Origin: a bacterium
GTDB lineage: Bacteria; Myxococcota_A; Polyangia; HGW-17; JAJRWW01
Assembly: GCA_043825095.1 (NCBI GenBank)
Contig: JBDRSE010000156.1
Coordinates: 125,309 to 189,308, forward strand
Length of the DNA stretch: 64,000 nt
Direction of reading: 5' to 3'
Shown here one piece after another: positions 31,486 to 53,237 of this stretch. A program made the position numbers and the translations under genes. Below the pieces are notes generated by a model. The model had not been told where the DNA came from and ran no database searches. It saw only the letters and a program-made list of their open reading frames with translations. Position 1 is the first letter of the stretch; each line of letters starts with the position of its first letter.

Positions 31486-32298
31486 ATGTCCCAACGAAAA
31501 TGGCGATTTCACCTGGTGCGCGGTGCCCGCTGTCTCGAGGTGGGCGACTTCGTGGGTGCGCACCGTCACTTCGAGACGGCCCATCGGGAGGCTCCCGGGG
31601 AGGCCATCGTGTGCCTGGCCTGGGGCCGGGAACTTCTCAGAACCGGTGAGCTCGAGGGGGCCGAGCGCCTCCTGCGGCAGGCGTGGAGCCTCGACTCCTC
31701 TCTGGACTCCGCGGCCTTTGCGCTGGCCCGCCTGCTGGGCCTACACGCCGACCGGCGGCAGGAAGCGCTCGACGTGCTGGACGAGGTGGAACGGCAGCGC
31801 GGGGTGGACGCGCCGTCGGTGCTGCTCCGGGGAGAGATTGCCGTGGCCGATCCGAGCTGTTTCGCAGAGGCGATCACCTGCTTTGCCCGGGCGAGGCAGC
31901 TGGGTGCAGACGAGGAGCTCGTCCGGCTCGGGCTGGCCAAGGCGCACAACGCCGAGGGAATCGTCCGGGGCCGGGAGGGAGATCATCACCAGGCGCTGTT
32001 CGCGCTGAAGCGCGCCGCAGATCTCGATCCGGAGTGGTCTGGTCCACGCGTGAACAGCGGCGCGATATTCGAACGGCTCGGACAGCTCCGCAAGGCGCGG
32101 GCGCACTATCATGAAGCCCTGCGGCTCGACCCGGTGAACCCGGTGGCGCTGTACAACCTCGCCGAGTCGCTCCGGCGGGAGGGCTCCTATTCGGGCGCGG
32201 CACGGTTCTACCGCCGCTTGCTGGCCGTGCAGCCCGACTATCCGGGTGGTGAGGATGGGTTGCGACTTACCCTCGCGGCTCATCGCCCGCAGTCGTGA
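31486..32298 (+). CDS. TPR-repeat protein
   Basis: Multiple 34-aa TPR-like units (A..A..LGQLRKARAHYHEALRLDP). Confidence 0.6.
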   Translation: MSQRKWRFHLVRGARCLEVGDFVGAHRHFETAHREAPGEAIVCLAWGRELLRTGELEGAERLLRQAWSLDSSLDSAAFALARLLGLHADRRQEALDVLDEVERQRGVDAPSVLLRGEIAVADPSCFAEAITCFARARQLGADEELVRLGLAKAHNAEGIVRGREGDHHQALFALKRAADLDPEWSGPRVNSGAIFERLGQLRKARAHYHEALRLDPVNPVALYNLAESLRREGSYSGAARFYRRLLAVQPDYPGGEDGLRLTLAAHRPQS

Positions 32299-32409: not shown

Positions 32410-33312
32410 TTGGCCGACGAAGAAGTCACGAGGATCACGTCGTTTGATCTCAGCGAGTTGACCGGACCCAAGGATCTGACTCAGGCGTATCTGATCGTCC
32501 TAGCCGGCAGCAACGTCGGCGAGATGTACAAAGTCGAAGGCGAGATGTTCATCGGCCGGAGCGCAACGGCGGAGATCCAGCTCCTCGATGAAGGGATCAG
32601 CCGGAAGCACTGTAGGATCCGGCGGACCCCCACCGGGGACGTGGCAATCGAAGATCTGGCGAGCACCAACGGCACCTTTGCCAATGGGGAACGGATCGGC
32701 CTGCACCAGCTCGCCGACGGCGACAAGATCCAGGTGGGCTCCACCACGATCCTCAAGTTCACATATCACGACAATCTGGAGGAGAACTTCCAGCGGCAGA
32801 TGTACGACTCCGCCCTACGAGACGGGCTCACGAAAGCGTTCAACAAGCGCTACTTCACGGATCGTCTGCACGCCGAGTTCGCGTTCGCGCACCGGCACCA
32901 GAGCCCGCTGGCCCTGTGTATGATGGATCTGGACCACTTCAAGTCGGTCAATGACACCTACGGTCATCTGGCCGGCGACTATGTGCTTCAGAACCTGGCG
33001 CTGCAGATTCAGCAATCGGTGCGAGCGGAAGACGTTTTCAGCCGCTATGGGGGCGAGGAGTTCGCGGTCATCAGCCGTGGCATTTCGGTCGAGAGCGCCA
33101 TCATCATGGCCGAGCGGATTCGTCAAGGGGTGGAGTCGTTCGCCTTCCAGTGGAACGGCAAGCGCATGCCGGTCACGATCAGCATCGGCCTCGCCGGGCT
33201 TCCCGACCCCAGAATCACCGAGCCCATGAGGCTGATCGCCGCGGCCGACGAGGCGCTCTACAGCGCGAAGCACGGCGGACGGAACCAGGTGAAGATCTAC
33301 CGACCACGCTAG
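32410..33312 (+). CDS. FHA-domain diguanylate cyclase (FHA + GGDEF)
   Basis: FHA (FIGRSATAEIQL...RKHCRI...STNGTFANG); GGDEF domain with intact RYGGEEF and RxxD-like segments. Confidence 0.8.
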   Translation: MADEEVTRITSFDLSELTGPKDLTQAYLIVLAGSNVGEMYKVEGEMFIGRSATAEIQLLDEGISRKHCRIRRTPTGDVAIEDLASTNGTFANGERIGLHQLADGDKIQVGSTTILKFTYHDNLEENFQRQMYDSALRDGLTKAFNKRYFTDRLHAEFAFAHRHQSPLALCMMDLDHFKSVNDTYGHLAGDYVLQNLALQIQQSVRAEDVFSRYGGEEFAVISRGISVESAIIMAERIRQGVESFAFQWNGKRMPVTISIGLAGLPDPRITEPMRLIAAADEALYSAKHGGRNQVKIYRPR

Positions 33313-33333: not shown

Positions 33334-34575
33334 ATGATCATACCGGCGATGGAGCTATGCGGGGGTAGGGTGGTGGTTGCGCAGGCGGACGAAACGACGC
33401 TCGAACGCGCAGAGGATCCCGTAGAGCTTGCCAAGGTCTTGTATCGCTACGGCGAAATCGCCCTGATCGATCTGGACGCCGCACGGGGCGAGGGGGACAA
33501 CCTGGAGCTCATCCGCGAGATCTGTCGCGTCTGCGAGTGTCGCGTCGGCGGGGGGATTCGAGACGAGAAGCGGGGAGATGCGCTGCTTCGCGCCGGCGCC
33601 ACCCAGCTGATTGTGGGCACCGGCGCCGACGAGGAGCTCCTGGCGCGTTTTCCGCGGAAGAAGGTGCTCGTCGGGATCGACGTCAAGGACGGAAAGATGG
33701 TCCACGGGGGGTGGATCGAGGCCACGGACATAGATCCCGTGCAGCTCGCTGTGCGGCTCCAGGAGTACTGTGCGGGCTTCGTTTATACGCCCGTTGGACA
33801 TCGCGACCGATTGGAGCCGGCCGAGGTTCAACGCTTCGAGGAGCTCCAGACCGCCTTGCCCAGGCATCGGTTCATCTTCAACGGCGGATTCTCCTCGTTG
33901 GACGAGCTCCGCGAGCTGGACCGCATCGGCGTCGACACCCAGGTGAGCTACGGCTTGATCCCGGAGGGGGTGGATCTCGCCGAGGCCTTCGTGGCGGTGA
34001 TCGACTTCGAGAAGAGCAGCGGGCTCGTTCCGGTGATCGTGCAAGACCAGGCAGGGCAGGTACTGACCCTCGTCTACGCCAACGAGGACGCGGTGCACAA
34101 GAGCCTGCAGACCGGCAAGGCGACCTACTGGAGCCCCGGGCGCGGCGAGATGTACACGAAAGGCCAGACCTCGGGGAATACCCATGAGGTGATTACGGTG
34201 CGGCCGGACTGCGATCGGGACGCGTTGCTGTTCGTCGTCGAGCCCCACGGCGCGTCCTGCCACGTGGGCCGTTACGCTTGCTTTGACGATATCTCGTACA
34301 ACCTGCAGCGCATCGAGCAGATGATGCGCTCCCGTCAGGCGGCTGCGGACGCCCGCAAGAGCTACACGTCGCTCATGCTGGCGGATCGCCAGGCGGTGAA
34401 GGATCGGGTCCGCGACGAGGCCGAAGCCCTGGTCGCCGCGAAGAGTCGCGACGAGGTCCTTTGGGAAACGGCGGATCTCCTCTATTTCGTGTTGCTCCAT
34501 CTCGTAGGGGAAGGCATCACCTTGGACGAAGTCCTCAAAGAGCTGCGCGGGAGGGCCGGGCGTCGGAGGTCCTGA
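33334..34575 (+). CDS. hisIE: Fusion protein: HisA-like (beta/alpha)8 domain + phosphoribosyl-AMP cyclohydrolase (HisI) + phosphoribosyl-ATP pyrophosphatase (HisE)
   Basis: N-term IIPAMELCGGRVV...VGGGIR...NGGFSSLDEL (HisA/HisF fold); middle DCDRDALLFVVEPHGASCHVGRYACF (HisI); C-term ETADLLYFVLLHLVGEGITLDEVLKEL (HisE). Confidence 0.7.
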   Translation: MIIPAMELCGGRVVVAQADETTLERAEDPVELAKVLYRYGEIALIDLDAARGEGDNLELIREICRVCECRVGGGIRDEKRGDALLRAGATQLIVGTGADEELLARFPRKKVLVGIDVKDGKMVHGGWIEATDIDPVQLAVRLQEYCAGFVYTPVGHRDRLEPAEVQRFEELQTALPRHRFIFNGGFSSLDELRELDRIGVDTQVSYGLIPEGVDLAEAFVAVIDFEKSSGLVPVIVQDQAGQVLTLVYANEDAVHKSLQTGKATYWSPGRGEMYTKGQTSGNTHEVITVRPDCDRDALLFVVEPHGASCHVGRYACFDDISYNLQRIEQMMRSRQAAADARKSYTSLMLADRQAVKDRVRDEAEALVAAKSRDEVLWETADLLYFVLLHLVGEGITLDEVLKELRGRAGRRRS

Positions 34576-34619
34576 CTTATCCTGAGCACGAGGGGGTGGG
34601 GCGCTCGAAAAGTACAGCG

Positions 34620-34862
34620 TATGTGTTCACGGGGTGAGCTATTTGCGGCACCCAGAGCGTAGCGAGGGCCACCCCCGGAGGGGGCGGAGGGGGAGATCTG
34701 AGCCGCGAAGTGGCGGATCGATCTCCGGCAGGTGCCAGCCTTCGCACCGCGCCGAAACCAGCCCGACAGCGCCGCCGCTGCGGCGGAGCACACCCCTGTC
34801 GGCCCCTCAAGGGGTAGCCCGCTAGCGCGGGCGTGCTGTGCCGTCTAATACGTGAACGGTTG
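34620..34862. repeat. MITE-like intergenic repeat, copy B (longer; flanked by direct repeat AGTACAGC)
   Basis: Same conserved blocks as 12679-12796 plus ~130-bp internal insertion with palindrome ggagatc..gatctcc; AGTACAGC at 34611-34618 and 34864-34871. Confidence 0.45.
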
Positions 34863-34925
34863 CAGTACAGCTTTGTGCCCATTCCTGGTAGGTTGAACCT
34901 CAGAGGACAGGCCATAGGAGGCGCC

Positions 34926-36164
34926 GTGAAAATCGTCAAGGGTGGTCCGCTTCCCGAGCGCCGACGACGAGGGAGCGCCCAGGATCGCGAGGCCGTGCGA
35001 GCCGCGTGTGAGGAGGTTCGGCGGTTCGGGGATCGCGCGTTGCGTCGCAGAGTGAAAGCCCTCGCCGTGCCGGGTGCGGAGCTGCGGCGAGCTTTCAGCC
35101 GCTTGACGCCCCAGGCGCGGAGTGCGCTCGAGCTGGCTTGTCGCCACGTCGGCCTGCTGGCTCGGCGCGAGCTGGCGGCGCTCAAGGAGTTCAACGTCAA
35201 GCCCACGGCAGGGGTGAGCTTGTACCAGCGTCTGCTTCCGGTACGCTCGGTCGGGATCCTCGCGCCGTCACGACAGATTGTGGCCGTGCTCATGGGGGCC
35301 ATACCAGCCGCAGTGGCCGGAGTGGAGCGGCGCGTGCTCTGCGCTGCCAGCGCAGACGGCGAGCTGGATCCCCATGTCCTCGCTGCGGCCTACATGTGTG
35401 ATATTACGGAGGTCTACCGCGTCGGCGGGGTGCTCGCCGCGGCAGCCCTCGCCTACGGGACCAAGACCATCCTGGCAGTGGATCTGATCGTCGGCGCCGG
35501 GGACTCGGCGGTGGCGATCGCCAAACAGGAGCTGGCCTCGGTCTGCGGCGTCGATCTGGCCACCGGCCCCCATGAGCTGCTCGTGCTGGCCGATTCCACG
35601 GCCCCACCGGAGTTCGTGGCCGCAGATCTGCTGGCCCAGGCGGAGCTGGATCCCGAGGCGGTGTGCCTGCTCGTCACCACCTCTGCCGACGTGGCCCAGC
35701 GTACCCGCGACGAGCTACGGAGGCTTGGGGGCTCGTTGCCCAAGGGACATCCGGCCCGGGGACCACTCAGCCGGGCTCGGGCCGTGGTGGTGGAGAGTCT
35801 CGACGAGGCCGTCGGGCTGGTCAATGCACGGGCTCCCCAGCGGCTCGCCCTGTTGGTCAAGCGTCCCGACGACCTGGCAGGTCGACTTCGAAGCTACGGC
35901 TCGCTGCTGGTCGGTCCGCAGTCGCCCGCGGCCCTGGGTGAGCTGGTGACCGGGGCCAACGCGCTGCTGCCCGCGGCGGGTGCAGCCGGGCAGTGGGGCG
36001 CCTTTGGTGTCGGCTCTCTGCTCCGGCGGGTGACCGTGCAGCAGGTCGACCCGTCCGCGTACCACCGGCTGTCCAGGGCAGCCGCCACCCTGGCCGAGCT
36101 GCAGGGACGAACCCTCACGACCCACGCCTTGACGGCCCGGCTCACCTCGGTCGAAGACGACTGA
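34926..36164 (+). CDS. Histidinol dehydrogenase-like protein (divergent; signature His replaced)
   Basis: HisD-like blocks GAGDSAVAIAKQELASVCGVDLATGPHELLVLAD and VAADLLAQAELDPEA (consensus ..SQAEHDP..); GTG start with RBS aggagg at 34916-34921 preferred over GTG 34833 lying inside the repeat. Confidence 0.6.
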   Translation: MKIVKGGPLPERRRRGSAQDREAVRAACEEVRRFGDRALRRRVKALAVPGAELRRAFSRLTPQARSALELACRHVGLLARRELAALKEFNVKPTAGVSLYQRLLPVRSVGILAPSRQIVAVLMGAIPAAVAGVERRVLCAASADGELDPHVLAAAYMCDITEVYRVGGVLAAAALAYGTKTILAVDLIVGAGDSAVAIAKQELASVCGVDLATGPHELLVLADSTAPPEFVAADLLAQAELDPEAVCLLVTTSADVAQRTRDELRRLGGSLPKGHPARGPLSRARAVVVESLDEAVGLVNARAPQRLALLVKRPDDLAGRLRSYGSLLVGPQSPAALGELVTGANALLPAAGAAGQWGAFGVGSLLRRVTVQQVDPSAYHRLSRAAATLAELQGRTLTTHALTARLTSVEDD

Positions 36165-36327: not shown

Positions 36328-36362
36328 AAAAAAAGCGGGCCGTCCATGTGGACGACCCGCTG
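36328..36362 (-). terminator. Rho-independent terminator downstream of tRNA-Lys
   Basis: A7 run then imperfect hairpin gcgggccgtcca/tggacgacccgc on + strand (U-tract for minus transcript). Confidence 0.4.
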
Positions 36363-36367
36363 AATCG

Positions 36368-36440
36368 TGAGCCCAGAAGGAATCGAACCTTCAACCTCCG
36401 GATTAAGAGTCCGCTGCTCTGCCAATTGAGCTATGGGCCC
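36368..36440 (-). tRNA. tRNA-Lys (anticodon CTT)
   Basis: Reverse complement GGGCCCATAGCTCAATTGGCAGAGCAGCGGACTCTTAATCCG...GGTTCGATTCC; loop cTCTTaa. Confidence 0.85.
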
Positions 36441-36457
36441 AGAGCAAGTTTTTAGTG

Positions 36458-36531
36458 CGCGCCCGGGGTGACTCGAACACCCGACCTGCGGATTCGAAGT
36501 CCGACGCTCTATCCAACTGAGCTACGGGCGC
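36458..36531 (-). tRNA. tRNA-Arg (anticodon TCG)
   Basis: Reverse complement GCGCCCGTAGCTCAGTTGGATAGAGCGTCGGACTTCGAATCCG...GGTGTTCGAGTCACC; loop cTTCGaa. Confidence 0.85.
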
Positions 36532-36748: not shown

Positions 36749-39700
36749 ATGAACACTGTTTACTTGAGCACTCAGAGGTCTAACATGCGGAGAAATAAAG
36801 CCCTGAAGTGGGCAATCAGCGTTGTTTTCATCTTTGCCGTGGGCGCGAGCTGCAACTCGTCGGGCTGCGAGATCCTGCAGCCGATGCCGGACGGCAACGA
36901 GGTGCCGCCGAATCAGACCATCGAAGGCGGCATGCAGGTGCGTGTCACGGCCGACGGGTTTGACAAGATCTCGTCGATCATCCCCGGGATCCTGGAGAAC
37001 TCCGGGCTGGGTGCCATCGAGCTCATCGCGCCCGGAACGCCGTTTGAGGTCGGCTCCTGCGGCACGATCGATTGGGCGTGCATCCGCTTCCAGTACTGCC
37101 CCACGGGTTGCGGCATCGATGTGTCCATCCCGCAGGGAGGGGTGGACATGTACGTCGACACGGCCTCCAACATGCTGATGTTGGATCTCACCATCGACGT
37201 CGCCTTTGTGCTGGATGCGCACCTCGAAATCGACATCATGAACTTCAGCGTCCTCGACATTACCTGTGGGCTCGGGCTGACGACCTTGGACGGCCCCCTC
37301 CACGTGACCGTGGGCATCGAGCCCTATATCCGCCCCGAGGACGGCGAGCTGCGGATTCGGCTTGGTCACCTCTCCAACCTGGACATCAGCGGCTTCAACC
37401 TCAGTCTCCAAGGTTGCGGCATCGTCGGGGACTACCTCAACACGTACCTCGACTACGTCAACGACATCATCGACATCATCGATTCCATCCTCGGGAACGC
37501 CATCACCGACTTCATCATGAACCAGTTCCTCCTGCCGATGGTGGGCGATATGATCGACGGCTTCGTGCCCGACCCCCTGGGGCTCGAGGGACAGTTCGAC
37601 GTCGGCTCGCTGCTGGCGGGCTTCTCGCCCGGCGCCGAGGGCGTTTTGGAGCTGCGCCTCACCCCGGGAGGCTACGTCAACCTGCTCGGCAACGGCATGA
37701 GCCTGGGGGTGATCACCGGTGTCAACAGCGACGCTGATCCCACCACCCGCAGCGCGACCCTGGATCCGGCCACAGGTGTGCGGATGCACTCCGAGCCGCA
37801 CCGCAAGATGCCGCCCATGCCCACTCCGGACTTCACCGGTGTGCTGGCCTCGGCGCCGGCGCGCAGCGCCCTGTCGGGGACGCCGTTCAAGCTGGACGCC
37901 GCGAGCGAGCTGGGCGGCTTCAACGACAGCCAGTACCTGCGGTACAAGGACCCCAACAGCCCGCTCAACAACCAGATCGCTGACCTCGCCATCGGCACGC
38001 CCGAGACGTTCCTCGACCTCCTGGGCTTCCACCTGCTCAACTCCGGCGCGCTGTGCCTGGAGATCGGGACCCAGGAGGTGGACATGCTCACCGTCGGGCT
38101 GTTCAGCATCATGGTCAGCTCCCTGGGCGATCTCGTGGATCCCCTGGTGGGGGACGCGCCCATGCGGCTGGTGATCCGGCCGCAGACGCCCATGGACTTC
38201 TGGATCGGCAACCCGTTGGACCAGGCCAACCCCACCCCGCTTTTGAACCTGTATCTGCAGGACTTCCAGATCGACATGTACGCGTGGTCCGAGGAGCGGT
38301 ACACCCGCGCGTTCACCATGGCGGTGGACATGGAGCTCGGCCTGAACCTATTGAGCGAGGTGGACCCGAACGACGGGACCCTCTATCTCAAGCCGGTTCT
38401 GGAGGACGTAAACGCCTCGGACCTGACCGTGCGGATCCACAACAGCGAGCTCATCGGCGACAGCCCGGAGGAGCTCGAGGCGCTCTTCCCGAGCGTGCTG
38501 TCGATGCTCATGCCGATGATCACCGGGATGCTGCCCGACATCGCCATGCCGGAGCTCATGGGGCTCTCCATGGAGTACCTGGAGTTCCGCCCCAACGACG
38601 CCCAGAACATGATGTTGATCCTCGCGAACATCAAGCTGCCGTCGAACCCGGTTCCCCCGGCGCCGGTGCCCGTGCTGCCGGTGCGCACCAGCGCCGAGCT
38701 GGTGGACGTCTACGTGCCCACACCGGCCGAGTGGCGCCGCTCCCAGCTGGACGAGAGCGTGCCGGCCGCGGAGAAGGACGTCCCCACGGTGCGCATCGCC
38801 GTGAACACCCGGACCGCCGATTCGAGCCTTGTGGAGTGGCAGTACCGGCTGAACGCCGGCGCCTGGCGCGGGTTCCGCCCCGGACCGGAGCTGGTGCTCA
38901 CGGACCAGACCTTCACTTTCCAGGGCTGGCACCACATCGAGGTGCGCGGTCGGGTGCGCGGAGAGCCCCGCTCCCTGGAACGGCAGCCGGTGAGCTTCGA
39001 CGTGCTGATCGACTCCACGCCGCCCCTGCAGAAGGCCACCGTGGAGGACGACACCCTGATCTTCAACGGCTTCGACCTGGTGACCGCGCGGACCGAGCTT
39101 CGGTACTCCTACGAGTTCGAGCCGGGGAACTACTCGTCCTGGTCTGATCGGGGGTCGATGCCCCTGTCCCGGGCGCGGACCCTGGCCAAGGCCCACGGCG
39201 GCGTGCTTCGGGTGCGGGTGATGGACGAGGCGGGCAACGTCTCTGAGGCCGAAATCGACGAGTCCTTGATGGGCGCGGTGAACGTGGATCCCAAGGTGGG
39301 CGGGTGCGGCTGCGCCACGTCCGGCAACGGTGAGGTGCCCTTCGCGGTGCTGTTCCTTGGACTTCTGGGGGTGCTGTTTTTTCGGCGCGGCCGGTCGGCG
39401 AGGCCGGCCGGCGCGCTCCTCGTAGTCGGTGTGGCCGCGCTGCTCGCCCTCGGCGGCTGCGCGAAAAAGGCGGGCGCCGGGGACCCGGACGCCACGGTGA
39501 CCGTGCCCTGCACCGATGATGACGAGTGCGTGGCCCTGCAGTGCGAGGACGATCAGATCCCGCTCTGCATCGACGGTGAGTGTCAGTGCATGGACGATCT
39601 GTTGTTCGGCAAGACCGGCCCGTACACGTCGCTGTCCGTGTCGTACAGCGACGTGATGGTGGCGGCGTACAACACCCGGTACGGCGACCTGATGTACGGC

Positions 39701-40975
39701 CACATCAGCAAGAACGACATCGGCTCGAACCCCATCATCACCAACTGGGAGTTCGTCGACGGTGTGCCGTGGGACCAGGATCCCGACGTGCCGACCTCGG
39801 AGATCCGGGGCGGCATCCGGACCAAGGGCGACAACGTGGGGCGGTTCACGTCCATCGGCACCGACGACAGCGGCCAGCCCGTGATCGCCTACTACGACGT
39901 CACCCACGGCGCGCTCAAGATCGCCCGCCACGACGGCACCAACTGGCAGATCTTCGTGGTGGATGACGGAGGGAACTCCGAGTCGGCCGAGGGCGGCGAC
40001 GCGGGTCGGTACACGTCGATGTCCATGCGGCCCTCTGACCGGGCGCCGGGAGTGGCGTATCTGGTGCAGGATCTGCCGTCGAACGACACCAGCGCCACCA
40101 TCACCCAGGTGCGCTTCGCCCAGGCCATCACGGCCAGCCCCATGAGCGGCGCGGACTGGATGATCTACATCGTGGACGAGCTGGCGGTGCCCGTTCTGGC
40201 CGACGACGCTCCGCTGCCCGACCTGCCCATGGGCGTCGGCGTCACCACGTCCGTGGATCGCACCTCGGACGGCCGGCCGGTGGTGGTGTACTACGACTCC
40301 TACAACGGCAACCTCAAGGGCGCGGAGTTCGACGACGCCAGCCAGCAGTTCTTCCCGCCCATCATCCTCGACGGCGACGACGGCGCGGGCACCGACACCG
40401 GCAACGTCGGCCTGTCCCCGTCGGTCCGGATCCGGGGCGACGACACGGTGTGGCACGTGAGCTACATGGACGCCGCGCTCAAGCAGCTGCTCTACCTGCG
40501 CACGGGCGCCGACTCCATTATCGAGGTGGTGGACGATGGCCTGCGCGAGGAGGTCAACGATCTCACCGGGCTCCCCATGCCGATCTCCCACTTCGTGGGC
40601 TACGACTCCAAGATCACCGTGGCGGGCAGCAGCCCCGATCCGGCCCAGAACAAGGTCTTCATCGCCTACAGCGACTCCACGACCCACGAGCTGCTCTGGG
40701 CCGTGCGGGACCCGGCCGCGCCCACGCCGTGGATCACCAGCTCGATCATCGGCGGCGACCCGGCCATCTGGAACTCCTCCCTCGCGCGGTTCGAGGACAG
40801 CTATGGCGAGCCCTGGCAGGGCGCCTACGGCTTCTACGTCGGCCTCGTCGACGACCAGACCACCGCGTACCTCTGCTCCTACGCCATCAACGAGTGGGCC
40901 GAGTCGGACCTCTTCGGCAACGCACCCCTCAACTACTGGGTGCAGATCTTCGCCAAGGCGCTGTCCGAAGGCTAA
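36749..40975 (+). CDS. Giant (1408 aa) secreted/surface protein: N-terminal extracellular part ending in a MYXO-CTERM-like motif, continuing in-frame into a lipoprotein-signal-like segment and a C-terminal repeat (YYD..G.LK) beta-propeller-like region
   Basis: ATG with RBS gggag; signal-like N-terminus; internal GGCGCATSGNGEVPFAVLFLGLLGVLFFRRGR (MYXO-CTERM pattern) at ~39300-39400 followed without stop by SARPAGALLVVGVAALLALGGC (lipobox). Confidence 0.55.
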   Translation: MNTVYLSTQRSNMRRNKALKWAISVVFIFAVGASCNSSGCEILQPMPDGNEVPPNQTIEGGMQVRVTADGFDKISSIIPGILENSGLGAIELIAPGTPFEVGSCGTIDWACIRFQYCPTGCGIDVSIPQGGVDMYVDTASNMLMLDLTIDVAFVLDAHLEIDIMNFSVLDITCGLGLTTLDGPLHVTVGIEPYIRPEDGELRIRLGHLSNLDISGFNLSLQGCGIVGDYLNTYLDYVNDIIDIIDSILGNAITDFIMNQFLLPMVGDMIDGFVPDPLGLEGQFDVGSLLAGFSPGAEGVLELRLTPGGYVNLLGNGMSLGVITGVNSDADPTTRSATLDPATGVRMHSEPHRKMPPMPTPDFTGVLASAPARSALSGTPFKLDAASELGGFNDSQYLRYKDPNSPLNNQIADLAIGTPETFLDLLGFHLLNSGALCLEIGTQEVDMLTVGLFSIMVSSLGDLVDPLVGDAPMRLVIRPQTPMDFWIGNPLDQANPTPLLNLYLQDFQIDMYAWSEERYTRAFTMAVDMELGLNLLSEVDPNDGTLYLKPVLEDVNASDLTVRIHNSELIGDSPEELEALFPSVLSMLMPMITGMLPDIAMPELMGLSMEYLEFRPNDAQNMMLILANIKLPSNPVPPAPVPVLPVRTSAELVDVYVPTPAEWRRSQLDESVPAAEKDVPTVRIAVNTRTADSSLVEWQYRLNAGAWRGFRPGPELVLTDQTFTFQGWHHIEVRGRVRGEPRSLERQPVSFDVLIDSTPPLQKATVEDDTLIFNGFDLVTARTELRYSYEFEPGNYSSWSDRGSMPLSRARTLAKAHGGVLRVRVMDEAGNVSEAEIDESLMGAVNVDPKVGGCGCATSGNGEVPFAVLFLGLLGVLFFRRGRSARPAGALLVVGVAALLALGGCAKKAGAGDPDATVTVPCTDDDECVALQCEDDQIPLCIDGECQCMDDLLFGKTGPYTSLSVSYSDVMVAAYNTRYGDLMYGHISKNDIGSNPIITNWEFVDGVPWDQDPDVPTSEIRGGIRTKGDNVGRFTSIGTDDSGQPVIAYYDVTHGALKIARHDGTNWQIFVVDDGGNSESAEGGDAGRYTSMSMRPSDRAPGVAYLVQDLPSNDTSATITQVRFAQAITASPMSGADWMIYIVDELAVPVLADDAPLPDLPMGVGVTTSVDRTSDGRPVVVYYDSYNGNLKGAEFDDASQQFFPPIILDGDDGAGTDTGNVGLSPSVRIRGDDTVWHVSYMDAALKQLLYLRTGADSIIEVVDDGLREEVNDLTGLPMPISHFVGYDSKITVAGSSPDPAQNKVFIAYSDSTTHELLWAVRDPAAPTPWITSSIIGGDPAIWNSSLARFEDSYGEPWQGAYGFYVGLVDDQTTAYLCSYAINEWAESDLFGNAPLNYWVQIFAKALSEG

Positions 40976-41071
40976 CCGCCCCAGGACCCTCAAGCACAAT
41001 CAGGAAGGGTCGAGGAGAGCAGCAGCTCTGCGAGGAAGAGACTCCCGGCAATGCCTCCGGCGTGACTGGCG

Positions 41072-41089
41072 TGTCAAGTTTACTTGACA
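41072..41089. promoter_or_regulatory. 18-bp palindrome TGTCAAGTT|TACTTGACA (candidate operator overlapping a TTGACA -35) upstream of the HTH gene
   Basis: Inverted repeat (mismatch only at the 2 central bases), 34 nt upstream of ATG 41123. Confidence 0.4.
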
Positions 41090-41122
41090 TCAGGCGCGAA
41101 CAGCCTACCCTGTCAGTTGAGA

Positions 41123-41595
41123 TGAACACACGCACGCTCAGAGCCCATTTGAAGGCAAGAGGATGGTCGCAAAACGAGCTGGCAAGCCGCATCGGCGTGA
41201 GTCGTCAGGCGGTTTCACTCTGGCTCAAACGCCCAGAAATATCGGTCCGCAGCAACCACCTGTTGAGCGTGAGCAAGGCCCTCGGTATCCCGGTGGAGTC
41301 GCTGGTGCAGCCGCTTCCCGCGCTTGGAGACGAGGGCGATCACGAACTGCTCCGCGCCACGTATCTGTGGGACCGCCTGTATCCGGATCTCGATGATTTC
41401 GCGATTGCCGTCAACCGGTGGGAGCCTTCCGCCGTGGGCCGCCTGGTGCAGGTCAGCGGACTGTTCGTGGCGGAGCGACTCCTGGGACGCGCGGTGTGGA
41501 AGAAGTTCGACCTGTACAAGCACCACATTCATTCCGCGCGCCGGCAGCAGCTGGAAGGCCTGGTCAAATGGCACGAGCACCCGACGCGCGACTAG
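41123..41595 (+). CDS. XRE-family (Cro/C1-type HTH) transcriptional regulator, putative antitoxin
   Basis: N-terminal HTH LKARGWSQNELASRIGVSRQAVSLWLKR; overlaps the downstream toxin-like gene. Confidence 0.65.
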
Positions 41596-42305
41596 CCCAA
41601 CGGGTGCTTTCGCCGCCGCTCTATCGCGCTCTCCGGCACGTGTTTGCGCAGGAGCCGGCCGGGTGTATGCTCGTCGGCGGAACAGCTCTAGCCGGCTACT
41701 ACGCGGGCCACCGTCGTTCCGATGATCTGGACCTGTTCGTCCGCGACCAGTCCGCGCTCCGGGCGGCCGTCGGCGCGGTCGAAGCACTGACCCGGCTCGG
41801 CGCTGTGCTCCACCCCCGACAACGCACTCCCCAGTTCTACGACGCAACTTGTGAGCTTTCCGATCACGCCTTCACAGTGCAGGTGGTTGTCGACGCACCT
41901 CTGCACCAGGTCGGTCAGCTCAGCCGCGCCAAAGACGGCGTGTCCGTCGCCACCCTCGAAACCCTGCTCAAGCAAAAGGCCGCCACGCTGGTCAGTCGCT
42001 GCTCCGAAAAGGACCTCTACGATCTGCAGTGGCTCCTGCAGGCCCATTCCGATCTGAAGCTCGATGCTCTCGTGGCGCTGGGTTCTCAAATCGACGGTGG
42101 GATGACTGCCGAGTCCGCGGTTGTCAGCCTGGTCGGCGCCACGCTCCGGCGGGCCGCGTGCGACTTCTCAATCGCCCAGGACAGCGCCGCCGTCTACCAG
42201 GACATCACCACCCTCAGAAAGTCCCTGGTGCAGGCATTCGAAAAGCTCGCCCGCAAAGAGCCCATCGGCGCCTTCGGCGACCTCGTCCGCAGCCTCAAGA
42301 CCTGA
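41568..42305 (+). CDS. Nucleotidyltransferase AbiEii/DUF1814-family toxin-like protein
   Basis: GGTALAGYYAGHRRSDDLDLFV motif typical of AbiEii-type NTases; ATG at 41568 overlaps the upstream HTH gene by 28 nt. Confidence 0.55.
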   Translation: MARAPDARLAQRVLSPPLYRALRHVFAQEPAGCMLVGGTALAGYYAGHRRSDDLDLFVRDQSALRAAVGAVEALTRLGAVLHPRQRTPQFYDATCELSDHAFTVQVVVDAPLHQVGQLSRAKDGVSVATLETLLKQKAATLVSRCSEKDLYDLQWLLQAHSDLKLDALVALGSQIDGGMTAESAVVSLVGATLRRAACDFSIAQDSAAVYQDITTLRKSLVQAFEKLARKEPIGAFGDLVRSLKT

Positions 42306-42365
42306 AACAGGCCTCGACCCTGAAACAGACCGAACGCAGAACCGCCGGAGCCTAGGCAATTCTCC

Positions 42366-43124
42366 CTAGGGATAGACGTTGTCGATGCACAGGGCGGTGT
42401 CGTCCGTGGCCAGGGTGCACCAGTAGTCCACGCCCTGTCCTTCGTCGGTGCACCAGGGGTGGAGATCCTGCAGGCTCACGGTCTCCGACCCGGCGAGGGT
42501 GTCGGTGACGCAGCCGCTGTGACTGACCCCGTCAGACTGGCAGAACAGGCAGTAGATCGCGTCGGCCACCGTGTTGGAGACTACGCCCTCGATCAGGCTG
42601 CCGCCCGTGCCGCAGGCGCCCCCGGCGATCGCGCTCACGGCGGGGACGCGGTAGTTGCAGTCGTCCGAGCAGTAGTCGACATAGGGGCTGCCCACGGGCG
42701 CGCAGGCCCGGTCCCATCCCCCGAGGCTCACGCAGCACAGGCTGTCGCACGTGCTGTCATCGATGCAGCTGGGCGAGCAGGTGGCGGGATAGTTCGGCGG
42801 ATCGCCGATACACAGCTCGTCGCTCTCACAGGTCTCGCTGCCGCAAGTCCCGGGCTGTCCGAACTCGGCACAGGAGTGCGCAGTGCACCAGCTCGCCTCG
42901 ACGCAGACGCCGGCCCCGCCGTTGTCGGCGCACACCTCGGTGGGTCCACAGTCGCCGCTGTCGTCACAGTCGGCCCCCTGGACGCAGTCGCCGAGCAGGC
43001 AGATCTCGGACGTGCCGTCAGACTCCGGACAGCCGCCGAGGCTCAACACGGCCACCAGGCCGACCGCCCCGAGCGCCGTCCGCAGGCCCGCGCCCCTGGC
43101 CCGCGCTGTTTTCGAAATGCTCAT
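42366..43124 (-). CDS. Cys-rich secreted lipoprotein
   Basis: Signal peptide + lipobox LGGC; ~40 Cys in 250 aa. Confidence 0.5.
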   Translation of the reverse strand: MSISKTARARGAGLRTALGAVGLVAVLSLGGCPESDGTSEICLLGDCVQGADCDDSGDCGPTEVCADNGGAGVCVEASWCTAHSCAEFGQPGTCGSETCESDELCIGDPPNYPATCSPSCIDDSTCDSLCCVSLGGWDRACAPVGSPYVDYCSDDCNYRVPAVSAIAGGACGTGGSLIEGVVSNTVADAIYCLFCQSDGVSHSGCVTDTLAGSETVSLQDLHPWCTDEGQGVDYWCTLATDDTALCIDNVYP

Positions 43125-43282
43125 CTCGTGCCTCCCCGGGGCGCCTACGCCGCGCTACGGTGTCGCCGCTGGGCGCCTCATTGATCCAGACGATCGAAGC
43201 GGACGAAACCCAATCTGACCCGCTCCAAGCCAGAGTGACATTGTCGTGCGAACGCCCGGACGGGTCAAGGAGCGCCGAAGCG

Positions 43283-43330
43283 TTGGTGAGCGCCGGTGAG
43301 CGCCGGAGCGCCGGTGAGCGCCGGGAGGGT
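43283..43330. repeat. Short tandem repeat (GGTGAGCGCC x3-4) in the WD40 gene upstream region
   Basis: gttggtgagcgccggtgagcgccggagcgccggtgagcgccggg. Confidence 0.5.
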
Positions 43331-43495
43331 GTTCCGCAAAGGCGGGGGCGGGAGCCTGCGATGGGCCTGCGTTTTGCTCATTTGAGGAAGTATCGGATTT
43401 GGCGGCCTGAGGGTCGAGGACGGGCTGGCAGATTTTTTTGGGAATACCCATCGATCTTTGCACATCGTGTTTCTGGGATGGGATACGGTACTGGT

Positions 43496-44635
43496 ATGCA
43501 CCTGAAAATCAACGCCATGACCCGTGGGTTGAAACGTCTGAATGCGTGGGTCTGCGCTTGGCGCGCGCCGCTGTTGGCGGGCCTGCTCGTGGCTTGCGCG
43601 GGTGGAGCGGGGAAACCCGATCAAGTTGTGCGGCACCGCTCACCTCCCCCGGACGTACGACACCGACTGTTTTCCACCGGCCCGGCCCGGCCTTCCGCGG
43701 GTGACGTTCCGCCGGCGGCTGGAACGTCTACTCAAAAATTCACGCCCCGGGGCAAGTTCGTCAACTGTGGGGATGGAGGTCCCCATGCGTTGGTTATCAG
43801 TGGAGACGGGCGCTGGTTGGTCACAACCGAGGATCGGTATCAGGTAGTGCGCCGCGAGCTGCCCTCAGGGCGAAAGGTCTGGACGCATCGGCAGGGATCA
43901 AAGGCATTTTGCCTGGCGATCTCAGGCGACGGTCGCACCGTGGCGTCAGCGGGGCTCGACAGAGAGGTGCATCTCCTCGACGCCGCCACGGGCCGGCAGC
44001 GTCGCAAGGTGCGAAATAAAGGAGCGGCATCCGGGGTCGCCCTCGGCCCTGCGGGTCGCTGGATTGCGTTGGCAGACCAGGAGCAGTCTGGACTGCTCCT
44101 GATGCCCCTTCCATCCGGCAAGGGTCGGCGCCTCAAGGCGGCTGGGGCAGCCATGGCCGTCGCGTTTTCCCGAGGCGGTCACCTGGCGGTCGGCGACGAA
44201 GCTGGAGTGGTGAGGTTGATTGCGCCTTCATTGCGCAGTGTCACCGCAACGCACCGTGGTTTCAAACCCTACATCACCGTCGTGGGATTTTCCCCAGATG
44301 GCAAGCAACTCGCCGGCGCCGGAATCAAGGGTGAGATTCGGGTGTGGAAGACCTCCTCGGGCCGCTTGCTACGGTCCGTTTCCCTCCCTGCACCTTGGTC
44401 CGTCTCCTTCAGCCATGATGGCAAGCTCTTGGCCTCTGGTGGAGTACAAGGCCTGCGGATTTGGGAACTGGCGACGGGACGCGTTCTATTCGAGCGCAAG
44501 GGCGGTGACTACCTGTTAGCGGCCTTCAGCCCGAAGGGTCGTCAATTGATCGTCATCGGCAGCCGCAATCAGTACTCCCCCCGGATGCGCCGGACAGGGC
44601 GTACGCGCTGCCAACTGGCGATCTGGAGCTACTAG
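43496..44635 (+). CDS. WD40-repeat lipoprotein
   Basis: Lipobox LVAC; multiple WD40-like blades (VASAGLDREVHLLDAATGR, LAGAGIKGEIRVWKTSSGR, LASGGVQGLRIWELATGR). Confidence 0.65.
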   Translation: MHLKINAMTRGLKRLNAWVCAWRAPLLAGLLVACAGGAGKPDQVVRHRSPPPDVRHRLFSTGPARPSAGDVPPAAGTSTQKFTPRGKFVNCGDGGPHALVISGDGRWLVTTEDRYQVVRRELPSGRKVWTHRQGSKAFCLAISGDGRTVASAGLDREVHLLDAATGRQRRKVRNKGAASGVALGPAGRWIALADQEQSGLLLMPLPSGKGRRLKAAGAAMAVAFSRGGHLAVGDEAGVVRLIAPSLRSVTATHRGFKPYITVVGFSPDGKQLAGAGIKGEIRVWKTSSGRLLRSVSLPAPWSVSFSHDGKLLASGGVQGLRIWELATGRVLFERKGGDYLLAAFSPKGRQLIVIGSRNQYSPRMRRTGRTRCQLAIWSY

Positions 44636-44819
44636 ACCCTGCTGGCTCGGTCGAGTCACTTTGGAGACGCATGTGCAGCGTCCGGCCACGGTCCGCATGA
44701 TGGCCTGATCCCGGAATGATCGTCGTCCTTCAAGGAATAGCGGAATACGGTACACTCAGCGCGGCTCATCACTGGAGCCCTCCGTCGCCAAATCGCTCGA
44801 TCAAAGGAAAGGGATTTCC

Positions 44820-45863
44820 GTGATGTGTGCTCAAGCTTTCCGCTCCGCTTTTTTTGTCGTGACCGTACTGGTACTGACCAGCTCGGGTTGCACCAAGAAG
44901 CCGAAGGGAGAGGCCTCGAAAGGTGCTGACGACAGCCTATCCGCCATGAAATCCGTCCCCTTGGCAAAGCCCAGGCCCGAGGGTTCCGCCACGACTGTCC
45001 CACGCCCGCGAGAGGTCCCACGCCCGCGAAAGGCATCGACGGACAAGGCGTACACCATCCTGTTCCACCGCCCCCTGCGGGTGGGGCTGCGGTATCGGTT
45101 GTTGGTCAAGGCTCGCAATGACACGCGGACCACTGCAGACGGCAAGGTGCTGCCCGTGCAGACCGTCAAGTTCAGCTATGTCTACGAAGCGGTGGTCACG
45201 GTCCTGGCCGTGGATCCCAAGGGCTGGCCCACCCGAGAAGACCACAAGGTGGTCCAGCTCAAGGCGACCAAGGCCGGGAAGACCTGGGATGTCTTGGCGC
45301 GAGATGTTGTGGTGTCGGCGTCAGCCACGACTGAGAGGAAGTTCTACAAGGTGGCTGGCAAACCCGTGTCCAAGGAGGTCCTGTTCTATCTGGCCAGGGC
45401 GATCGATCTGAACGAGCGCGCTGACCCGAGCAACGACGATGTGTACGGCCCCGGAGGTCCGAAAAAACCGGGCGACCAATGGAAGGTCAATCGCGAAAAG
45501 CTGCTCGAACAGCTCCATAAAAACCTCAAGAATCAGGTCGTGCTGCCAAAGGCAAGCGACGTCATAAGCCGTGTGCGTCTGGTGGGCGCCAGGAAGAGAA
45601 AAGGCATCGATGAGCTGCTCGTCCTGGCCGTGGTCAGAGTCGAAAATCTCATCCCCAACTTCCCAAACGTCAAGGGCACCGCTGGGACCCTGAAAATGGA
45701 GCAAGGATCGATGCTTCCGCAAAACACCCGGTCCATTGCCGTCGAGCAGGCGCAAAATATTGTCATACACTTCGAGGGTCTGGTCAAAAAAGGCGACCAG
45801 CGAATCAAGCTGGTGCTCCACGGCACAGCGATCACGGAAGTGAAGCGGTCTCCCATCCCCTAG
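44820..45863 (+). CDS. Hypothetical lipoprotein
   Basis: Lipobox SSGC; RBS aaaggaaaggga; no recognisable domain. Confidence 0.45.
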   Translation: MMCAQAFRSAFFVVTVLVLTSSGCTKKPKGEASKGADDSLSAMKSVPLAKPRPEGSATTVPRPREVPRPRKASTDKAYTILFHRPLRVGLRYRLLVKARNDTRTTADGKVLPVQTVKFSYVYEAVVTVLAVDPKGWPTREDHKVVQLKATKAGKTWDVLARDVVVSASATTERKFYKVAGKPVSKEVLFYLARAIDLNERADPSNDDVYGPGGPKKPGDQWKVNREKLLEQLHKNLKNQVVLPKASDVISRVRLVGARKRKGIDELLVLAVVRVENLIPNFPNVKGTAGTLKMEQGSMLPQNTRSIAVEQAQNIVIHFEGLVKKGDQRIKLVLHGTAITEVKRSPIP

Positions 45864-45961
45864 CAGCCGCGTTAATGCCGGTGTGTTCGGCCAACTGGGC
45901 GGCACACCAGCTGGACAGTGATTCGCGTTCTGGAGACGAAATCCGGACGCGAGAGCTGGGG

Positions 45962-46031
45962 GAGCTTCATGTACGTCGGTCCCCAGGGCATCGTGCGCGG
46001 GACCGCGGCCACGCTGCTGGGCGCGGCGGCA
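45962..46031 (+). pseudogene. Orphan fragment of urocanate hydratase gene (duplicate of hutU 47648-47715)
   Basis: ~68 bp with ~85-90% identity to the internal hutU segment encoding SFMYIGPQGIVHGTTITLLGAG; no flanking hutU sequence. Confidence 0.45.
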
Positions 46032-46078
46032 AAAGATTTCTTACGCATCTGATCTTACTGGTATGATGCGTACGCGCG

Positions 46079-46891: not shown

Positions 46892-46972
46892 TGAGCGCCA
46901 GGGCAATCCTGCGCCTTGCCGAAGGGGTTTGAACTACGGGGTCGAAGGAGCGAGCCGCGAGGAGAGCCGACC

Positions 46973-49036
46973 ATGAATGACAGGACCGACAGGACCGACG
47001 TGAAGGACGCCGAGTTCCAGCAGGCCGTTCGCGCGGGGATTCCGCAGGAGCTGCCGGAGCTGCGGCCCGTAGACGATACGGTGGACCATGCGCCGCCGCG
47101 GCCGCAGGTGCTCAAAGGGCCGGAGCGCAGGCGGGCGTTGGAGAACGCGCTGCGGTATTTTCCGGAGTCGATGCACCGGGAGCTGGCGCCGGAGTTTGCG
47201 CGGGAGCTGGCCAAGGACGGGCGGATCTACATGCGGCGGTTCCGGCCGCGCTACGAGATGTACGCGCGGCCCATCGACGAGTATCCGGCGCGATGTCGGC
47301 AGGCGGCGGCGGTGATGGTGATGATCCAGAACAACCTGGACCCACGGGTGGCGCAGCATCCGCACGAGCTGGTGACCTACGGCGGGAACGGTACGGTGTT
47401 CCAGAACTGGGCGCAGTACCTGCTTACGATGGAGTATTTGTCGGAGATGAGCGAAGAGCAGACCCTGGTGCTCTATTCGGGGCATCCGCTAGGGCTGTTC
47501 CCTTCGCACGCCGACGCGCCGCGGCTGGTGGTCACCAACGGGATGGTGGTGCCGAACTACAGCTCTGGGGACGACTACAACCGCATGGCGGCGCTGGGGG
47601 TGACGTCCTATGGGCAGATGACCGCGGGGAGCTTCATGTACATCGGTCCCCAGGGCATCGTGCACGGCACCACGATCACGCTGCTGGGTGCGGGGCGGGT
47701 GTTTTTGGGGCTGGAGAACGACCAGGACCTTCGGGGCAAGGTGTACGTGACGTCGGGGTTGGGGGGGATGAGCGGCGCCCAGGGCAAGGCGTCGGTGATC
47801 TGCGGGGCGGTGGGGGTGATCGCGGAGATCAACCCTCTGGCGGCCAAGAAGCGCCACGAGCAGGGGTGGGTGGACGAGGTGGAGTCGGACCTGGACAAGG
47901 TGCTCCGGCGCATGGACGCGGCCCGGAAGGCGAAGGAGCCCCTGGCCCTGGCGTACGTGGGCAACGTGGTGGACCTCTGGGAGCGGTTCGTGAAAGCGGA
48001 TGTGGAGGTGGAGCTGGGCTCGGATCAGACCTCGCTGCACATTCCGTATACGGGCGGGTACTACCCGGCGGGGCTGAGCTTGGAGCAGTCCCGGGAGCTG
48101 ATGGGTCGGGACCCGGAGGGGTTCAAAGAGCGGGTGCACGCGTCGCTGCGGCGGCAGCTGGACGCCATCAACACCCTGGCGGAGCGCGGGATGGCCTTCT
48201 GGGACTACGGCAACGCGTTCCTGCTCGAGGCGTCGCGCGCCGGGGCGGCGGTGGCCGGGGATCGGCCGTCCGGCTTCCGGTACGCGTCCTACGTGGAGAA
48301 CATCATGGGGCCGCTGTGCTTCGACTACGGCTTCGGGCCCTTCCGCTGGGTGTGTACCAGCGGTGAGCCGGCGGACCTGCGGGTCACGGATCAGCTGGCC
48401 GCCGAGGTGCTCGCCGAGCTGATGGAGACGGCGCCCTGCGAGATCCGCGGCCAGCTGGGAGACAACCTGCGCTGGATCCGGCGGGCGGAGGAGCACCGGC
48501 TGGTGGTGGGCTCCCAGGCGCGGATCCTCTACGCCAACGAGGAGGGCCGCGTGAGGATCGCCCGGGCCTTCAACCGGGCCATCCGGGACGGCCGGGTGCA
48601 GGGGCCGGTGGTGCTCGGCCGGGACCACCACGACGTGTCGGGCACGGATTCTCCTTATCGCGAGACGGCCAATATCTACGACGGGAGCCAGTTTTGCGCC
48701 GATATGTCCGTGCACAACGTGATCGGCGATGCGTTCCGGGGCGCGACCTGGGTGAGCCTGCACAACGGCGGCGGCGTGGGCTGGGGCGAAGTGATGAACG
48801 GCGGGTTCGGGCTCGTGCTCGACGGCAGCGACGACGCGGATCGACGGCTGGCGGCCATGCTCTTCTGGGACGTGAACAATGGCATCGCGCGCCGGGCCTG
48901 GGCCCAGAACCCCGGCGCCGAGCACGCGGCCCGGGCCGTGATGGAGCGCGAGCAACGGATTCGGGTCACCCTGCCGAGCCATGCCGATCAGGACCTGCTC
49001 CAAGAAGCGCTGCGGGCGGCATTCTCAGAGAGCTGA
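46973..49036 (+). CDS. hutU: Urocanate hydratase
   Basis: Full-length urocanase; RBS gaggagag; ATG 46973. Confidence 0.9.
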   Translation: MNDRTDRTDVKDAEFQQAVRAGIPQELPELRPVDDTVDHAPPRPQVLKGPERRRALENALRYFPESMHRELAPEFARELAKDGRIYMRRFRPRYEMYARPIDEYPARCRQAAAVMVMIQNNLDPRVAQHPHELVTYGGNGTVFQNWAQYLLTMEYLSEMSEEQTLVLYSGHPLGLFPSHADAPRLVVTNGMVVPNYSSGDDYNRMAALGVTSYGQMTAGSFMYIGPQGIVHGTTITLLGAGRVFLGLENDQDLRGKVYVTSGLGGMSGAQGKASVICGAVGVIAEINPLAAKKRHEQGWVDEVESDLDKVLRRMDAARKAKEPLALAYVGNVVDLWERFVKADVEVELGSDQTSLHIPYTGGYYPAGLSLEQSRELMGRDPEGFKERVHASLRRQLDAINTLAERGMAFWDYGNAFLLEASRAGAAVAGDRPSGFRYASYVENIMGPLCFDYGFGPFRWVCTSGEPADLRVTDQLAAEVLAELMETAPCEIRGQLGDNLRWIRRAEEHRLVVGSQARILYANEEGRVRIARAFNRAIRDGRVQGPVVLGRDHHDVSGTDSPYRETANIYDGSQFCADMSVHNVIGDAFRGATWVSLHNGGGVGWGEVMNGGFGLVLDGSDDADRRLAAMLFWDVNNGIARRAWAQNPGAEHAARAVMEREQRIRVTLPSHADQDLLQEALRAAFSES

Positions 49037-50986: not shown

Positions 50987-50989
50987 GCA

Positions 50990-53234: not shown

Positions 53235-53237
53235 CCC

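Follow-up and report, generated by a model that had tools for sequence, protein, structure and literature searches.

A HisA-HisI-HisE fusion and a HisD-like protein with degenerate active sites in a Polyangia lineage, probably the end of a histidine operon retained in a non-catalytic role

HisD, HisI, and HisE are oligomeric enzymes of histidine biosynthesis, and yeast HIS4 combines them as HisI-HisE-HisD in one chain. Pseudoenzymes are well known in eukaryotic signaling. To our knowledge, few bacterial ones derive from core amino-acid biosynthesis, the classic case being HisZ, a catalytically inactive paralogue of HisRS that regulates HisG. Here, we describe a 64,000-nt stretch of DNA (the window; GenBank assembly GCA_043825095.1, contig JBDRSE010000156.1, positions 125,309 to 189,308) from a bacterium of the Polyangia, in which a tri-domain HisA-like/HisI/HisE protein is encoded next to a HisD-like protein. 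In both proteins, catalytic and metal-binding residues were lost within a conserved fold, and we put the probability at about 0.6 that the pair is the surviving 3' end of a histidine (his) operon, exapted as a non-catalytic unit.

The reviews of his gene fusions that we consulted name hisD, hisN, hisB, and hisH, as well as hisF, hisI, and hisE as the fusing genes, with hisA not among them, and a 2024 paper mentions HisA/F-HisIE fusions in four archaeal assemblies in passing. An earlier note on this DNA had called the three-domain layout unusual; the architecture is instead common and ancestral. A homologue search with the fusion returned 1234 matches at E ≤ 1e-10, and the best 120, which were examined for domains, all had the three-domain layout; databases name such proteins 'bifunctional HisIE'. 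Species-representative genomes scanned with a single peptide pattern gave 80 loci, 78 of them outside the clade of the window protein. The loci came from Myxococcota, Phycisphaerae and other Planctomycetota, Melainabacteria/Obscuribacterales, Acidobacteriota, Spirochaetes, Krumholzibacteriia, and one Heimdallarchaeote (L029). For 44 of the 78 non-clade loci, hisG, hisB, hisH, and hisF were upstream of the fusion and hisD was directly downstream, and 28 further loci, mostly on short contigs, showed part of this order. The order hisG-hisC(+HAD)-hisB-hisH-hisF-(AIE)-hisD, in which AIE denotes the HisA-HisI-HisE fusion, was found in at least six bacterial phyla and in the Heimdallarchaeote, and a fusion with hisD behind it forms the operon's standard 3' end. 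At one locus (L008), the fusion is the operon's sole HisA, HisI, and HisE, since the single-domain barrel encoded upstream scores as a true HisF (342 bits; cutoff of 295) and the gene downstream as a true HisD (477 bits).

Sixteen functional sites were tracked in the active-type fusions (Group A): D7, D116, E157, and G158 of the barrel; D292, C293, D294, D296, C309, H310, and C316 of HisI; and E361, E362, E365, E378, and D381 of HisE. All 16 were invariant in 94 of 94 sequences. At the position of the beta6 catalytic acid, occupied by Asp176 in stand-alone HisA, Group A has an invariant Glu (KEG). Larger natural fusions were also present (AIE-HisD, AIE-HisD-HisC(+HAD), AIE-HisG, and HisF-AIE), with sizes of 860 and 862 amino acids (aa) for P0244 and P0264, 1501 and 1586 aa for P0263 and P0283, and approximately 630–780 aa for P0254, P0329, P0345, and others. 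P0349 (933 aa) is a HisH-barrel-HisF-IE chain.

An active-type fusion is not always bound to the operon. On a 207-kb human-gut metagenome contig (L010/L011), the active-type fusion P0096 was found outside any his operon, with panD, a PRK-family kinase, a nucleotidyltransferase, HD, NUDIX, and ispF as neighbors. Several metagenome-assembled genome (MAG) records titled 'uncultured Enterobacteriaceae' or 'Klebsiella pneumoniae' (L015, L020, L024, L027, L033, L047, and L084) carry GC-rich, Myxococcota-like his operons that are 55–75% identical to operons of Myxococcales MAGs, and the taxonomy of these records looks wrong.

The pair in the window originates from this operon end. The fusion gene (33334..34575, + strand) encodes a 413-aa protein (MFH2007351.1) consisting of a HisA-like (beta/alpha)8 barrel (residues 1–215; 33334..33978, +), a HisI (PRA-CH) domain (33979..34293, +), and a HisE (PRA-PH) domain (34294..34575, +); the assignments rest on Pfam matches together with structure alignments and Foldseek for the barrel and motif alignments for HisI and HisE. 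Pfam assigned His_biosynth to residues 1–201 (PF00977, 114 bits), PRA-CH to 246–317, and PRA-PH to 326–405. AGGGGA precedes the ATG of the fusion, which begins 21 bp past the stop codon of an FHA-GGDEF gene. The HisD-like gene (34926..36164, +) encodes a 412-aa protein with a full-length Histidinol_dh domain (PF00815, 310 bits). Its start had been placed at 34833; the GTG at 34926 is most likely the start, as a Shine-Dalgarno sequence (AGGAGG) lies 6 nt upstream, relatives align from there, P0121 supports it, and the database protein MFH2007352.1 is exactly this 412-aa product. The spacer between the two genes (34576-34925) is GC-rich and 350 bp long in the window, compared with 7–150 bp in most relatives. 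A riboswitch or other RNA element there or nearby was considered and rejected, as an Rfam scan that included the spacer found tRNAs only, and no promoter or terminator signal was found at the junctions.

The barrel scored below both HisA equivalog cutoffs (104 versus 229 for TIGR00007 and 96 versus 243 for PRK13585), as did the HisIE part (166 versus the NCBIfam cutoff of 187) and the HisI part (111 versus 126) below theirs, while the HisE part (49 versus 43 for TIGR03188) and the HisD-like protein (294 versus 244 for TIGR00069) passed. AlphaFold2 models had a pLDDT of 80 and a pTM of 0.70 for the fusion and 84 and 0.83 for the HisD-like protein. The low-confidence stretches were residues 309–326 of the fusion (former HisI Zn loop/linker) and 346–364 of the HisD-like protein (former NHVLPT loop). 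The top Foldseek matches were HisA of S. enterica (TM-score of 0.82) and HisD of E. coli (1K75; TM-score of 0.72), and the former, with the PF00977 match, bears out the full barrel domain proposed in the earlier note.

The catalytic, protonated Asp of HisA/PriA is D176/D175, with R83, S103, and W145 contacting the substrate (PMC9088769). The beta6 register was set on two structures. Counting along the alignment with 1QO2 placed D127 of T. maritima HisA (TmHisA) in SLD and D169 in KDG, and a peptide search on 5A5W, the D176A variant of S. enterica HisA (SeHisA), placed the Ala of SRAGT at chain position 176. The suspected substitutions in the barrel proved to be real and in register: Glu7 occupies the position of the beta1 catalytic Asp (TmHisA D8; SeHisA D7), and Arg157 occupies the position of the beta6 catalytic Asp (the Asp of RDG; SeHisA D176, equivalent to TmHisA D169). 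Gly205 and Tyr209 of beta8, both invariant in active fusions, are missing as well. In the barrel, D116 (the beta5 Asp), R76, W127, and D46/D48 are kept, as are the phosphate loops (GGG 72–74, G95-T96, and G184-G185). HisI and HisE had both been described as intact. This holds for HisI of the window, which keeps all Zn ligands and the Mg-binding DxDxD (DCDRD...SCH...ACF), and not for HisE, a MazG-like domain in which Ala365 replaces the invariant Glu of the acidic metal-binding motif EExxE and Asp361 replaces Glu (E362, E378, and D381 are kept). Of the 16 tracked sites, five differ in the window fusion and 11 in P0019.

HisD is an obligate dimer whose Zn ligands are two His, one Asp, and one Gln; Glu326 activates water, His327 is the general base, and His367 binds the substrate (PMC11382572). 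Alignment with 1K75 confirmed that AQAELDP in place of QAEHDP is the loss of the Zn ligand His262 (H262L), and the damage is larger than had been noticed: E326Q, H327R, D360E, and H367A are also present, and at the position of His419 a Thr is aligned, with a His two residues further on. Only one of the four Zn ligands is thus kept (Gln259; not His262, Asp360, or His419). Equivalent single mutants of HpsN, a repurposed relative of HisD, drop 240–580 fold or to zero activity (PMC11382572). In public records, the two proteins are annotated as 'phosphoribosyl-ATP diphosphatase' and 'histidinol dehydrogenase', and ordinary histidine biosynthesis with tolerated substitutions would agree with these names, with the HisD-like and HisE scores above their cutoffs, and with the intact HisI motifs of the window. 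We regard this explanation as poorly supported and highly improbable, because the HisD-like protein has lost three of its four Zn ligands and both catalytic residues, changes of the kind that cost HpsN its activity, the catalytic acid of HisA is Arg, the HisA equivalog scores are 96–104 against cutoffs of 229–243, and all eight clade members lack the remaining operon genes at this locus.

Some 25 clusters of fusions, each sharing at least 51% identity with the window protein, and 21 HisD-like clusters (48–65%) make up the clade. Clustering at 50% leaves it one representative among 1.8 billion proteins, and its source names ('Deltaproteobacteria bacterium', 'Myxococcales', and 'Polyangia bacterium') point to Myxococcota. 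Residues were tabulated for 24 fusion sequences and, for the HisD-like proteins, for the 21 clade clusters against 99 canonical matches. Position 7 of the fusion was Glu in 15 sequences, Gln in eight, and His in one, with Asp in none. Arg was found at position 157 in 21 of 24, inside a conserved V-G-H-R motif (21–24 of 24). Glu365 was present in none of the 24, compared with 94 of 94 active fusions. The full DxDxD of HisI remained in four and its Cys/His Zn set in 15 of the 24, and the window copy is among the most conservative. All 21 HisD-like clusters lacked His262, the Glu326-His327 pair, Asp360, and His367, which the 99 canonical matches keep; APQRL replaced the Glu326-His327 region in most of the 21, and the replacements at the Zn site varied by member. 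The clade proteins have many newly invariant columns. The HisD-like members keep the Rossmann-type loop GGxDAxxALAHGT (with a 14-residue deletion in the NAD loop of L006/L007), and the fusion retains Q237-D238 and K276-G277..S280-G281 of HisI. The fusion and HisD-like trees had the same internal topology, indicating that the pair co-diverged.

Both genes are under purifying selection comparable to that on their neighbors. The ratio of nonsynonymous to synonymous substitution rates (dN/dS), calculated from unsaturated pairs only (dS of 0.16–0.65), was 0.09–0.13 for the fusion and 0.27–0.29 for the HisD-like gene; for the flanking controls, it was 0.09 (FHA-GGDEF), 0.14 (TPR), and 0.23 (large protein). 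In L003/L014, dN/dS of the HisI domain was 0.07 though no metal ligand is left in it. Slow, functionless decay of pseudogenes after loss of the pathway would be in line with the variable replacements at catalytic positions, the NAD-loop deletion in L006/L007, and a possible in-frame stop in the HisD-like gene of L097. Such passive decay is also poorly supported, and we consider it very improbable: reading frames are intact in eight of eight clade loci down to 41–51% identity, dN/dS (0.09–0.29) is level with that of the flanking genes, many columns have become newly invariant, both structures are predicted with confidence, and both genes have good ribosome-binding sites.

Degenerate catalytic sites were also observed in fusions beyond the clade (P0247, P0257, P0265–P0267, P0291, P0293–P0295, P0303, P0325, P0334, and P0359; loci L095–L099). 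Some of these group with the window's clade in the neighbor-joining tree, and dead-type HisD-like genes follow two of them. In the neighbor-joining trees, the clade is attached to the midpoint root by a long branch, and the grouping of the other degenerate fusions with it is possibly long-branch attraction; the wider set may represent either an older and broader dead clade or repeated independent loss. The basal clade member P0025 lacks VGHR, as do the sister-lineage fusions P0247 and P0257, in which that loop is even deleted. The genes for P0247 and P0257 are preceded by an FGE-sulfatase-like gene and followed by a HisD-like gene. The sister HisD-like proteins are closer to that of the window than to canonical HisD (E of 1e-15 versus 4e-5 for L097 and 3e-7 versus 0.07 for L095). 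The degenerate fusion P0267 stands alone. The constant feature across degenerate lineages is the pairing of the fusion with the HisD-like protein, not the cyclase.

The main rival to a non-catalytic role is a new enzymatic activity, in which the barrel (E/Q7, D116, H156, and R157) and a Zn-free Gln-Arg HisD-like protein would catalyze new reactions on a phosphoribosyl or imidazole compound in a short pathway, perhaps linked to urocanase. Residues conserved at the old active sites (VGHR and, in most of the 21, APQRL), the retained phosphate loops, W127, D46/D48/D116, and GGxDAxxALAHGT loop, the purifying selection on both genes, and a syntenic urocanate hydratase gene are all compatible with this proposal, and HpsN provides a precedent for a switch of substrate on the HisD fold (PMC11382572). 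We nevertheless judge it unlikely. The beta1 residue varies among Glu, Gln, and His inside the clade, and the basal and sister lineages have no VGHR. The HisI metal sites decay differently among subclades while dN/dS stays low, and the replacements at the HisD Zn site differ by member. HpsN itself, the known repurposed relative, keeps Zn and the Glu-His pair (PMC11382572), and no common new catalytic constellation was seen across the degenerate lineages. The earlier suggestion of a HisA with non-canonical chemistry is not supported, as the variation at beta1, the Arg in place of the catalytic acid, and the degradation of the HisE, HisI, and HisD modules in the clade indicate a loss of pathway chemistry rather than a variant of it.

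The neighborhood of the pair is conserved. Directly upstream of the fusion, as the earlier note had observed, is an FHA-GGDEF diguanylate cyclase gene (32410..33312, +; identified by Pfam and sequence reading), whose product is a strong GGDEF-model match, with RxxD lying five residues upstream of its GGEEF motif. It is preceded by a gene for a TPR protein (PknG_TPR-like; 31486..32298, +; Pfam and synteny), and the HisD-like gene is followed by a gene for a 1408-aa protein with no Pfam domain (36749..40975, +), a syntenic neighbor whose function may be unrelated. These five genes were in the same order in eight of eight clade loci. The gap between the GGDEF and fusion genes was −4 to 31 bp in all eight, with ATGA overlaps in three, and no terminator-like site was found at this junction. 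The urocanate hydratase gene hutU (histidine catabolism; 46916..49036, +; TIGR01228, 416 bits versus a cutoff of 375) followed the large protein in the five loci where the contig extends far enough; in the window, it lies approximately 6 kb further on. The clade-wide order is nuoA-I, an outer-membrane protein, TPR, FHA-GGDEF, fusion, HisD-like, the ~1400-aa protein, hutU, RsbRD_N, and DsrM/K-like, and exceptions were due to short contigs and a few local insertions. An anti-phage defense system was considered and rejected, as none of the five syntenic proteins had a PADLOC match.

No hisG, hisC, hisB, hisH, or hisF was found within 10 kb in any clade locus, and the absence of other his genes nearby, reported previously, extends to the whole 64-kb window. 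With the residue changes being real and no his genes nearby, the suggestion that the genes had been repurposed pointed in the right direction. One form of repurposing would be that of partner subunits, with the pair being duplicated non-catalytic paralogues that modulate active his enzymes encoded elsewhere, in the manner of HisZ. This would account for catalytic residues being lost with fold and interfaces conserved, and dead copies could enter heteromers, since HisD, HisI, and HisE are oligomeric. We consider it rather improbable, given that the window holds no second his locus, that the operon partner is a signaling gene and not a his gene, and that two clade genomes each gave one fusion locus and no second, although this last point is weak evidence from a single peptide pattern.

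Our favored reading remains the exaptation of an operon fragment. An operon of the widespread hisG-C-B-H-F-(AIE)-D type is the source, its hisAIE and hisD end probably surviving in an uncultured Myxococcota/Polyangia lineage after the five upstream genes had gone from the locus. Between them, the two proteins have lost residues needed for isomerization of phosphoribosylformimino-5-aminoimidazole carboxamide ribotide (ProFAR), phosphoribosyl-ATP (PR-ATP) hydrolysis, and histidinol oxidation, and most members also those for phosphoribosyl-AMP (PR-AMP) cyclohydrolysis. The lack of the upstream genes and these residue losses imply that the pair no longer makes histidine, and its residues predict that it is catalytically inactive. 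It is kept as folded, co-diverging proteins by purifying selection, probably as a ligand-binding, regulatory, or scaffolding unit. The phosphate loops, the stacking Trp, the retained Q237-D238 and K276-G277..S280-G281 of HisI, E362/E378/D381 of HisE, and the Rossmann-type loop of the HisD-like protein argue for continued ligand binding, and the co-divergence of the pair together with the AIE-HisD super-fusions of active relatives argues that the two proteins may still act together. In the window's clade, the fusion is probably co-transcribed, and in some members translationally coupled, with FHA-GGDEF; this tight coupling suggests that the output of the pair may be an input to cyclic di-GMP (c-di-GMP) signaling. 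A more specific and doubtful proposal is that the pair is a two-protein receptor of a phosphoribosyl-nucleotide and/or NAD(H)-type ligand that controls c-di-GMP synthesis through the translationally coupled FHA-GGDEF in the Polyangia lineage; if true, a fragment of a biosynthetic operon would have been exapted wholesale into a signaling module.

Alternatively, the pair may have originated by duplication from an operon elsewhere. Synteny was considered as proof of an in-situ deletion of hisG to hisF and was rejected, as none of the genes that flank the active-type loci of Myxococcota recurs beside the clade loci, and a relic and a duplicate are not separable in this manner.

Several observations weigh against a non-catalytic unit tied to the cyclase. 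The link to FHA-GGDEF is confined to the window's clade, and the fusion and HisD-like genes of L001 are separated by an oppositely oriented Kazal-domain gene (11475-12449, −). The pair and the cyclase lie in a long collinear block (nuo ... dsr), and their adjacency may partly reflect shared ancestry. The sequences compared were from metagenome assemblies throughout, and that of the L097 HisD-like gene has the possible in-frame stop. HisI of the window keeps every metal and catalytic residue and could be an active PR-AMP cyclohydrolase, and the conserved replacements (G155-H156-R157 and the Gln-Arg of APQRL) could form a new catalytic site rather than serve mere binding.

Other features of the neighborhood were recorded. 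The N-terminus of the 1408-aa protein is lipoprotein-like, and a MYXO-CTERM-like motif occurs internally at residues 851–882 (20.2 bits; cutoff of 20), followed by an apparent second lipoprotein signal; the protein looks like two secreted proteins in one frame. The hutU product has an N-terminal extension of approximately 115 residues, and the gene directly follows that of the large protein in L003, L013, L093, and L094. A histidine-degradation gene thus travels with a dead histidine-synthesis pair, and no hutH, hutI, or hutG was seen nearby. An insertion of approximately 6 kb found only in the window (40450-46906) lies between the large protein and hutU and contains genes for an HTH protein and an AbiEii-type toxin (41418-42305), a WD40 beta-propeller (43160-44635), and a TonB_C protein (46079-46891). 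Downstream of hutU are a DsrMKJOP-like set (Nitrate_red_gam, Fer4_8, small protein, Fer4_11, and NrfD; 49973-55164, +) and a Qmo/Hdr-like set (FAD oxidoreductases, FlpD, and CCG; 56516-61162, +), followed by a CobA/HemD fusion (61865-63454). Dissimilatory sulfur-metabolism machinery is thus present in a Polyangia-labelled lineage, and DsrC was found in L094 (20900-21217). Genes for tRNA-Lys(CTT) and tRNA-Arg(TCG) lie between the HisD-like and large-protein genes (36367-36531, −), with a terminator-like hairpin near them (36334-36361), and a tRNA-His/Arg/Pro cluster is located at 2015-2289 (−).

None of the papers searched described dead HisD or HisA paralogues. On the favored reading, four enzyme modules on two adjacent genes would have lost catalysis together while remaining paired and under selection, a clean example of operon-fragment exaptation, and the pair offers a testable system for what former active sites are retained for. 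As public records name the two proteins as ordinary his enzymes, metabolic reconstructions would wrongly credit the lineage with four steps of histidine synthesis. A by-product of the analysis is the trifunctional HisA-HisI-HisE fusion (Glu for Asp176) and its operon, which are widespread across phyla; the his-fusion reviews consulted do not name hisA as a fusing gene.

Among known systems, HpsN (DHPS-3-dehydrogenase) changed its substrate with Zn and the Glu-His pair kept (PMC11382572), unlike the window protein. HisD of E. coli (1K75) shares with the HisD-like protein the whole-chain fold (TM-score of 0.72), the TIGR00069 match, the Rossmann-type loop, and Gln259, whereas His262, Asp360, His419, Glu326/His327, and His367 are replaced in the window. 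Similarly, HisA/PriA (5A5W, 1QO2, and M. tuberculosis PriA 3ZS4) shares with the barrel the (beta/alpha)8 fold (TM-scores of 0.77–0.82), the GGG, G-T/S, and GG loops, the beta5 Asp, and the stacking Trp; the window differs in having Glu for the beta1 Asp, Arg for Asp176, no beta8 Gly205/Tyr209, and low equivalog scores. The Group A fusion has the same three domains in the same order at approximately 407–421 aa, is 38–46% identical, and is followed by a HisD-family gene, but it lies in a full his operon and has all catalytic and metal residues (94 of 94), whereas the clade lacks these residues and the five upstream genes. HIS4 and the bacterial AIE-HisD super-fusions couple the IE or AIE unit functionally to HisD, which fits the retention of the two genes as a pair, although these are active multifunctional enzymes. 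HisZ resembles the pair as an enzyme-derived protein of the histidine pathway kept for a non-catalytic role; its origin is a tRNA synthetase and the his pathway in which it acts is active, whereas the pair consists of two biosynthetic enzymes with no active pathway seen at the locus.

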